This document shows positions 55,836 through 55,900 of a DNA stretch of 64,000 bases, one piece after another. A program made the position numbers and the translations under genes. Below the pieces are notes generated by a model. It saw nothing but the letters and a program-made list of their open reading frames with translations. It was not told the DNA's origin and did not search any database. Positions within the stretch are counted from its first letter, which is position 1; each line of letters opens with the position of its first letter. Source of the DNA: a virus; the IMG/VR virus record IMGVR_UViG_3300016657_000129, positions 9,346-73,345 of that record. One strand, given 5' to 3'.

Positions 55836-55900
55836 GTTATAGAATAGTCCGCGAAAACCCCGTGTCTTTAGACCGGGGTTTTCGCGGACTATTCTATAAC
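55836..55900. mobile_element. mirrored IS605 left-end remnant (27-bp perfect inverted repeat)
   Basis: 55837-55878 is the exact reverse complement of 2039-2080. Confidence 0.85.

Follow-up and report, generated by a model that had tools for sequence, protein, structure and literature searches.

How did a 65-bp perfect palindrome come to stand at the edge of a phage CRISPR locus, and does it have any effect there? The locus lies in a 64,000-nt stretch of cyanophage DNA (hereafter the window, to which all positions refer unless stated otherwise), taken from a linear IMG/VR record of 86,997 bp that is about 81% complete. On the minus strand the order is Cas12 (59652-57484), leader, array (57337-55914), a 13-nt stub, the palindrome, a regulatory cassette and a helicase gene. 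An earlier reading of the letters alone (the sequence-only reading) had placed the palindrome 13 nt from the distal end of the array, which is correct, as the last repeat starts at 55914 and the gap runs from 55901 to 55913. The features of the locus are as follows.

57484-59652, minus strand: 722-aa TnpB-like Cas12 effector, identified by sequence comparison.
55914-57337, minus strand: CRISPR array of 20 identical 37-nt repeats, with its leader on the cas12 side.
55901-55913, minus strand: 13-nt stub separating the palindrome from the last CRISPR repeat.
55891-55920, minus strand: promoter-like hybrid pointing at the helicase gene, a consensus match only (10/12).
55836-55900, no strand: palindrome with 27-nt arms and an 11-nt centre, found by inverted-repeat search and folding.
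55717-55818, minus strand: regulatory cassette upstream of the helicase gene, with a twin at 53968-54069 (78% identity).
54091-55752, minus strand: helicase gene (ResIII/DEAD/Helicase_C), downstream of the palindrome on this strand.

The direction of the array is read from the orientation of cas12. All 20 repeats are identical, the terminal one included, and the array ends in the 13-nt stub with no decayed repeat. Terminal CRISPR repeats usually decay, so the intact last repeat and the stub together suggest a truncation of the array, with probable loss of its old end; the stub itself may be the start of a truncated spacer. The effector is 24-25% identical to the TnpB of the insertion sequence (IS) resident in the same window, over two partial segments, and a meaningful link between that element and the Cas locus, which the palindrome had been taken to embody, is therefore reduced to one of position. 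Homologues of Cas12 are found on contigs of 2.9-3.4 kb (P0001, 98%; P0002, 87%), and in IMG/VR neither the Cas12 nor the helicase had any relatives. On the other side, the homology of the cassette with its twin stops about 17-18 nt from the palindrome. The twin cassettes, which precede the initiator and helicase genes, each hold a plus-strand terminator-like hairpin with a T6 run. The promoter-like match is a hybrid of the two neighbours, with its -35 hexamer (TTGAAA) in the last repeat and, after 18 nt, its -10 hexamer (TAGAAT) derived from the outer part of the IS left end (LE). GC skew follows gene orientation and is uninformative for placing an origin near the palindrome, and Rfam and tRNA scans of the window gave no matches.

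The palindrome is the longest perfect hairpin-type inverted repeat of the 64-kb window, the runner-up having arms of 19 nt. Its arms (55836-55862 and 55874-55900) are complementary at all 27 positions, and in the 11-nt centre a further 3 bp pair around a 4-nt loop with one bulged base, giving a hairpin of 30 pairs. As single-stranded DNA it folds at -34 kcal/mol, against -7 +/- 2 for shuffled sequences (z about -13). These data bear out the 65-bp structure, the mirrored 27 bp and the appearance of TTAT and the LE on both strands that had been described from the letters. Its two components are:

55837-55879, plus strand: TTAT followed by 39 nt from the start of the IS left end, identical (43/43) to the reverse complement of 2038-2080 and holding the linker, an AAAA guide-like tetranucleotide and the hairpin.
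55874-55900, minus strand: mirrored arm, whose minus-strand reading is again TTAT and the outer LE.

A BLAST search with the palindrome against the whole 86,997-bp record returned this 43-nt match at 100% (window 2038-2080 to 55837-55879), one base more than the 42 first reported for 55837-55878 and 2039-2080, and no further copy of the palindrome. Continued into the flanks, the alignment agrees at 5/7 bases, which we judge to be chance. A 25-nt core of the LE occurs at three sites in the window (2056-2080, plus; 55837-55861, minus; 55875-55899, plus), where shuffled sequences predict 0.00 matches.

The element from which this sequence derives can be delimited closely, as homology to two copies in Microseira wollei (L006, L007) covers exactly 322-2080.

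322-2076, top strand on the minus strand: resident IS605-family element of 1,755 bp, its extent set by homology.
337-1623, minus strand: tnpB of the resident element (PF01385, OrfB_IS605; PF07282, zinc-ribbon TNB domain).
about 1613-2014, plus strand: tnpA of the resident element, a Y1 HUH transposase (PF01797, E 2.9e-38).

The tnpA gene is intact and divergent from tnpB, and its product is 98% and 92% identical to those of two M. wollei copies. The right end (RE) consists of GAAT, a hairpin and a tail finishing in TCAA at 322, which lies four nt after the foot of the hairpin; tnpB runs towards this end, and its stop codon falls within the loop of the RE hairpin. The LE has its first base at 2076, next to TTAT at 2077-2080. 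The assignment of the 2080 end as the left one thus stands, with tnpB running to the opposite end and TTAT flanking this one. Read on the minus strand, the native LE comprises TTAT, a 13-nt linker, AAAA, a hairpin with a bulged T, TGAC, CGCG and a second hairpin, and its kin share the order AAAA, hairpin, TGAC (or TAAC), CGCG and second hairpin. With a Y1 TnpA, a TnpB, subterminal imperfect hairpins and no terminal inverted repeats, the element is a regular member of the IS200/IS605 family. Its right cleavage tetranucleotide, TCAA, and the position of this are the same as in IS608, and at the LE the series TTAT, 13-nt linker, AAAA and hairpin corresponds to how cleavage site, guide and hairpin are arranged in IS608 (PMC3201880). 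In the M. wollei genome, TTAT precedes all of 15 distinct related LE copies whose upstream flanks are unrelated, so TTAT is both the target and the left cleavage site, as had been proposed.

These comparisons also identify the source of the palindrome. The related M. wollei LE copies differ from it in the linker and loop, and identity at 43/43 positions while the kin vary there points to the phage's own IS lineage as the source and to a recent event. What stands next to the array is a solo LE, identical to that of the resident element over 43 of 43 nt including the target site, with neither IS body nor RE: the RE motif occurs in the window only at 324-350 and not near the palindrome, and the palindrome flanks contain no other IS-derived stretch longer than 9 nt. 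Like the LEs of the IS200/IS605 family, it has a tetranucleotide site 5' of a subterminal imperfect hairpin, with an AAAA guide-like motif at the foot. It differs from them in that the LE is solo and mirrored and the stem has been perfected, so that in the hairpin form the guide and cleavage site are base-paired, on both strands.

The anatomy of the second arm is the key to how this came about. On the plus strand the palindrome begins with G, TTAT, linker, CGCG, AAAA, inner stem, loop and inner stem, all of it native LE. Past the inner stem it reads TTTT, CGCG, the complement of the linker, ATAA and C, where a native LE has TGAC (opposite AAAA), CGCG and its second hairpin. Outside the inner stem the right arm complements the left one without a mismatch (22/22 positions); it was therefore copied from that arm and does not belong to the IS. 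Across the whole arm the derived side complements the opposite one at 27/27 positions, while the native form of the LE is an imperfect inverted repeat; this is the anatomy of a template-switch product, and the suggestion of a template-switch scar fits it well. We therefore consider it probable that the palindrome is a true scar, left by the LE of the IS605-family element that the phage itself carries and perfected by fold-back (template-switch) synthesis.

Under this account, the resident element, or one with an identical LE, would once have occupied a TTAT in the interval separating the array from the control region of the helicase gene. During replication, the nascent strand would have paired back within the LE hairpin, at its inner stem, or switched to the complementary strand; it would then have been extended outwards along the first arm, across AAAA, the linker and TTAT. 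Synthesis would have rejoined the template past the IS right end, where the RE tail plus C and ATAA plus C share 2-3 nt. A single error of this kind would turn an imperfect LE hairpin into a perfect palindrome with 27-bp arms, place TTAT and the LE on both strands, and eliminate the remaining IS sequence, probably along with the oldest stretch of the array; the order of events and the truncation of the array are what we infer from the arrangement. The fold-back and strand-switch versions are both possible, and predict opposite orientations of the loop. One insertion and one replication error make up the simplest account.

The model has close relatives among quasipalindrome events, for which homogenisation of the arms together with inversion of the spacer is described as a hallmark of template switching (PMC8604942; see also PMC13100816, PMC8794818). 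In such events, as in the Ripley model, the opposite arm serves as template, the arms are homogenised and lengthened, and the spacer may be inverted. The host provides a precedent: in the LE of a tnpB-only copy of M. wollei (L086, 1501-1560), the AAAA/TTTT stem has been perfected and the loop inverted, which is the template-switch pattern of PMC8604942, and this LE is identical to the minus strand of the palindrome over 35 nt. The palindrome departs from ordinary quasipalindrome events in the growth of its arms from 5-13 bp to 27 bp, reaching the target site, and from classical two-hop events in that this growth is coupled to the loss of about 1.7 kb. The last point weighs against a single fold-back, since a classical two-hop template switch deletes no 1.7 kb; one must suppose either that the return hop came down past the RE, guided by no more than 2-3 nt of microhomology, or that a deletion followed as a second step. 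The arms also stop one base outside TTAT, a tidy boundary that the fold-back model does not predict. We regard the palindrome as an unusual scar, not as a new kind of system.

In a rival account, two IS copies had been inserted tail-to-tail at neighbouring TTATs on opposite strands and had then collapsed by slipped deletion between CGGGGT repeats. Both the left LE and the reverse-complemented right LE contain this 6-nt sequence, and deletion between its copies would fuse the outer LE parts via one hairpin. TTAT would then flank both sides with no copying into the flank, long inverted repeats are unstable, and the 6-nt direct repeat sits exactly at the junction. Such a history nevertheless takes more events, namely two independent insertions within about 10 nt and in opposite orientations, followed by a deletion; IS200/IS605 insertions, moreover, are strand-biased (PMC5027513), and the G/C pair outside TTAT would be left as a coincidence. 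We find it improbable.

Small single-hairpin derivatives of IS605-type elements with the core gone are known as PATEs from Haloquadratum walsbyi, where left and right tips are kept after direct-repeat deletion and copies can be multiple (PMC3119063). Forms of 52 bp in Haloquadratum (PMC3119063) invite the reading that the palindrome is a terminal-only PATE, in which an IS collapsed to left tip, one hairpin and right tip and may still be mobile. The phage structure consists instead of two mirrored left tips: its 3' side is the complement of the LE arm and not an RE tail ending in TCAA, and it is present in a single copy in the record, with none in IMG/VR, JGI metagenomes or 401 genomes. Having no right tip and one copy, it was rejected as a PATE, an identity to which we give practically no credence. 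A REPIN-like doublet was rejected on anatomy and copy number. A protelomerase site was also rejected: the 11-nt centre is not palindromic and the enzyme was not found, the protelomerase family PF16684 having no match in the record (about 81% complete).

How the junction behaves in related phages was then of interest, and this comparison, one of the checks suggested with the sequence-only reading, proved informative. Three sister contigs (L112-L114), with about 92% nucleotide identity, are collinear with the window from 63535 to 52132 except for 59566-55803. The absent segment, 55803-59566, extends from codon 29 of cas12 through the array and the palindrome to 33 nt past the latter. The sisters retain the tracrRNA region and cas12 codons 1-28, followed by 315 non-coding nt (the replacement is defined by L114 3560-3955, the same in L112 and L113, against window positions 59567 and 55802). 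The 315-nt insert ends in the RE of a different IS605-family element, with GAAT, a hairpin and a tail to TCAA, which directly abuts the helicase cassette 33 nt from the palindrome site and shares about 80% identity with the RE sequences of elements from many Nostocales genomes. Going by these alignments, the loss of cas12 and the array in the sister phages is IS-associated. In sister lineages, the remnants of two different IS605-family elements thus lie no more than about 35 nt apart, the array-distal junction having been hit independently by each.

The two phage types are also connected through a spacer. The third spacer from the distal end of the array (56099-56133) matches L112, L113 and L114 at 35/35 positions (6124-6158), inside the replication-initiator gene of the sisters (L114 5853-7517). 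Sister and window initiators share their C-terminal 390 aa at 77%, and their N-terminal parts (~165 aa in the sister, ~185 aa in the window) are unrelated. With the match lying within this unrelated N-terminal part, the CRISPR-bearing phage thus seems to target the variant initiator domain of its CRISPR-less relatives. In one metagenome contig (L115, 2701-3439), a sister-type initiator gene is fused to a window-type array at the shared 35 nt. It was considered as an inverted arrangement of the array and rejected, being a chimeric contig joined via the spacer/protospacer identity; as an assembly chimera, it indicates that both phage types were present in one sample.

The chimera shows that such joins do arise in samples of this kind, and the possibility that the palindrome is itself an artefact of assembly or amplification, a chimeric join at a hairpin, had been raised at the outset. 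The record is metagenome-assembled, and the palindrome is a single copy beside a repeat array, with its junction in one assembly. Against this, the LE and its own reverse complement share 6 nt at the join, far below an assembler k-mer, and fold-back artefacts normally mirror a whole contig end and not 27 nt. Both flanks are unique and collinear with the sister phages up to 55802. An artefact is accordingly very improbable. Elsewhere, the palindrome, its flanks, the LE core and the CRISPR repeat were not found in the IMG/VR, INPHARED phage and JGI metagenome sequences searched, nor was an empty site, an IS-occupied allele or a second assembly of the junction, and the history given here is consequently reconstructed from one sequence. 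Among 401 genomes of the host's order there was no mirrored LE of the resident IS family, which marks the event as rare.

The sister phages bear as well on the earlier idea of a rearrangement hotspot, to which they lend indirect support, having lost cas12 and the array at this place; the remnant they carry is nevertheless from another IS605-family element and lies 33 nt away. A stronger form of the idea makes the palindrome an active TnpA substrate, nicked after TTAT on either single strand, and hence a fragile site that rearranges the CRISPR module. In its favour, TTAT, the 13-nt linker, AAAA and the hairpin fit the IS608 layout (PMC3201880), an intact tnpA is present in the same genome, and the sister genomes are rearranged at this junction. 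In single-stranded DNA, however, the guide and the cleavage site are predicted to be hidden inside the 27-bp stem (-34 kcal/mol, against -15.5 kcal/mol for the native LE), no RE is at hand for a synaptic complex, and the sister-phage junction belongs to the different element 33 nt away. We hold active use of the site to be distinctly unlikely. With one hairpin and no right end the remnant cannot transpose, and any action of TnpA on it would be expected to amount to nicking at best, with no transposition.

Perfecting the stem created a T4 tract, so that the palindrome reads A4-stem-T4 in both directions. As RNA, the full hairpin folds at -51.9 kcal/mol, and on either strand an inner hairpin of -11.8 kcal/mol is followed by U4. 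The minus-strand pre-crRNA would thereby gain a very stable 3' hairpin, the inner stem and then UUUU, ahead of the helicase promoter, and some terminator effect can be predicted. The LE hairpin of IS200 is a bidirectional terminator (PMC4513863), and in M. wollei a solo LE with a T5 run and no IS body stands 27 nt after a gene stop (L088, about 1500-1545), where it looks like a terminator.

These observations can be pressed further, to the view that the palindrome is an exapted IS end kept by selection as a two-way terminator or insulator, which ends the pre-crRNA and shields the helicase/replication promoter from read-through. Its location between the last repeat and the helicase cassette, the A4-stem-T4 arrangement in both directions with the inner RNA hairpin and its U4, the two-way termination by the IS200 hairpin (PMC4513863) and the host solo LE with T5 right after a gene would all suit that view. 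The tract of four U is nonetheless short: the palindrome hairpin was not listed by the terminator scan, which requires 5 T in 8, and the clear terminators of this phage carry five or six T. The sister phages, furthermore, manage without the palindrome, and there is one copy. Maintenance by selection is, in our estimation, unlikely. Any role that it has today is probably confined to that of a barrier formed by the hairpin, or of a weak terminator acting in both directions, between array and helicase promoter. Such an effect is most likely incidental, and we rate the palindrome as a scar with at most a modest insulating effect.

Taken alone, the palindrome is a small curiosity. It does show how a single-strand transposon end can become a long perfect palindrome, and how, through this conversion, a phage CRISPR locus is left with a hairpin barrier on its border. 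The sister phages add weight, in that the same junction was hit twice, one branch lost Cas12 and the array, and a spacer matches the initiator gene of that branch over 35/35 nt. A bolder and rather doubtful extension is that mirror-image end palindromes, of LE or RE, form a general, undescribed class of IS200/IS605 scars, which would arise by fold-back synthesis and mark IS-coupled deletions, here a trimmed array in one branch and the removal of cas12 and the array in another, and would leave TnpA-recognisable sites on both strands and a fragile junction. Should mirrored IS ends turn out to recur, they would serve to flag IS-mediated deletions which standard IS annotation overlooks.
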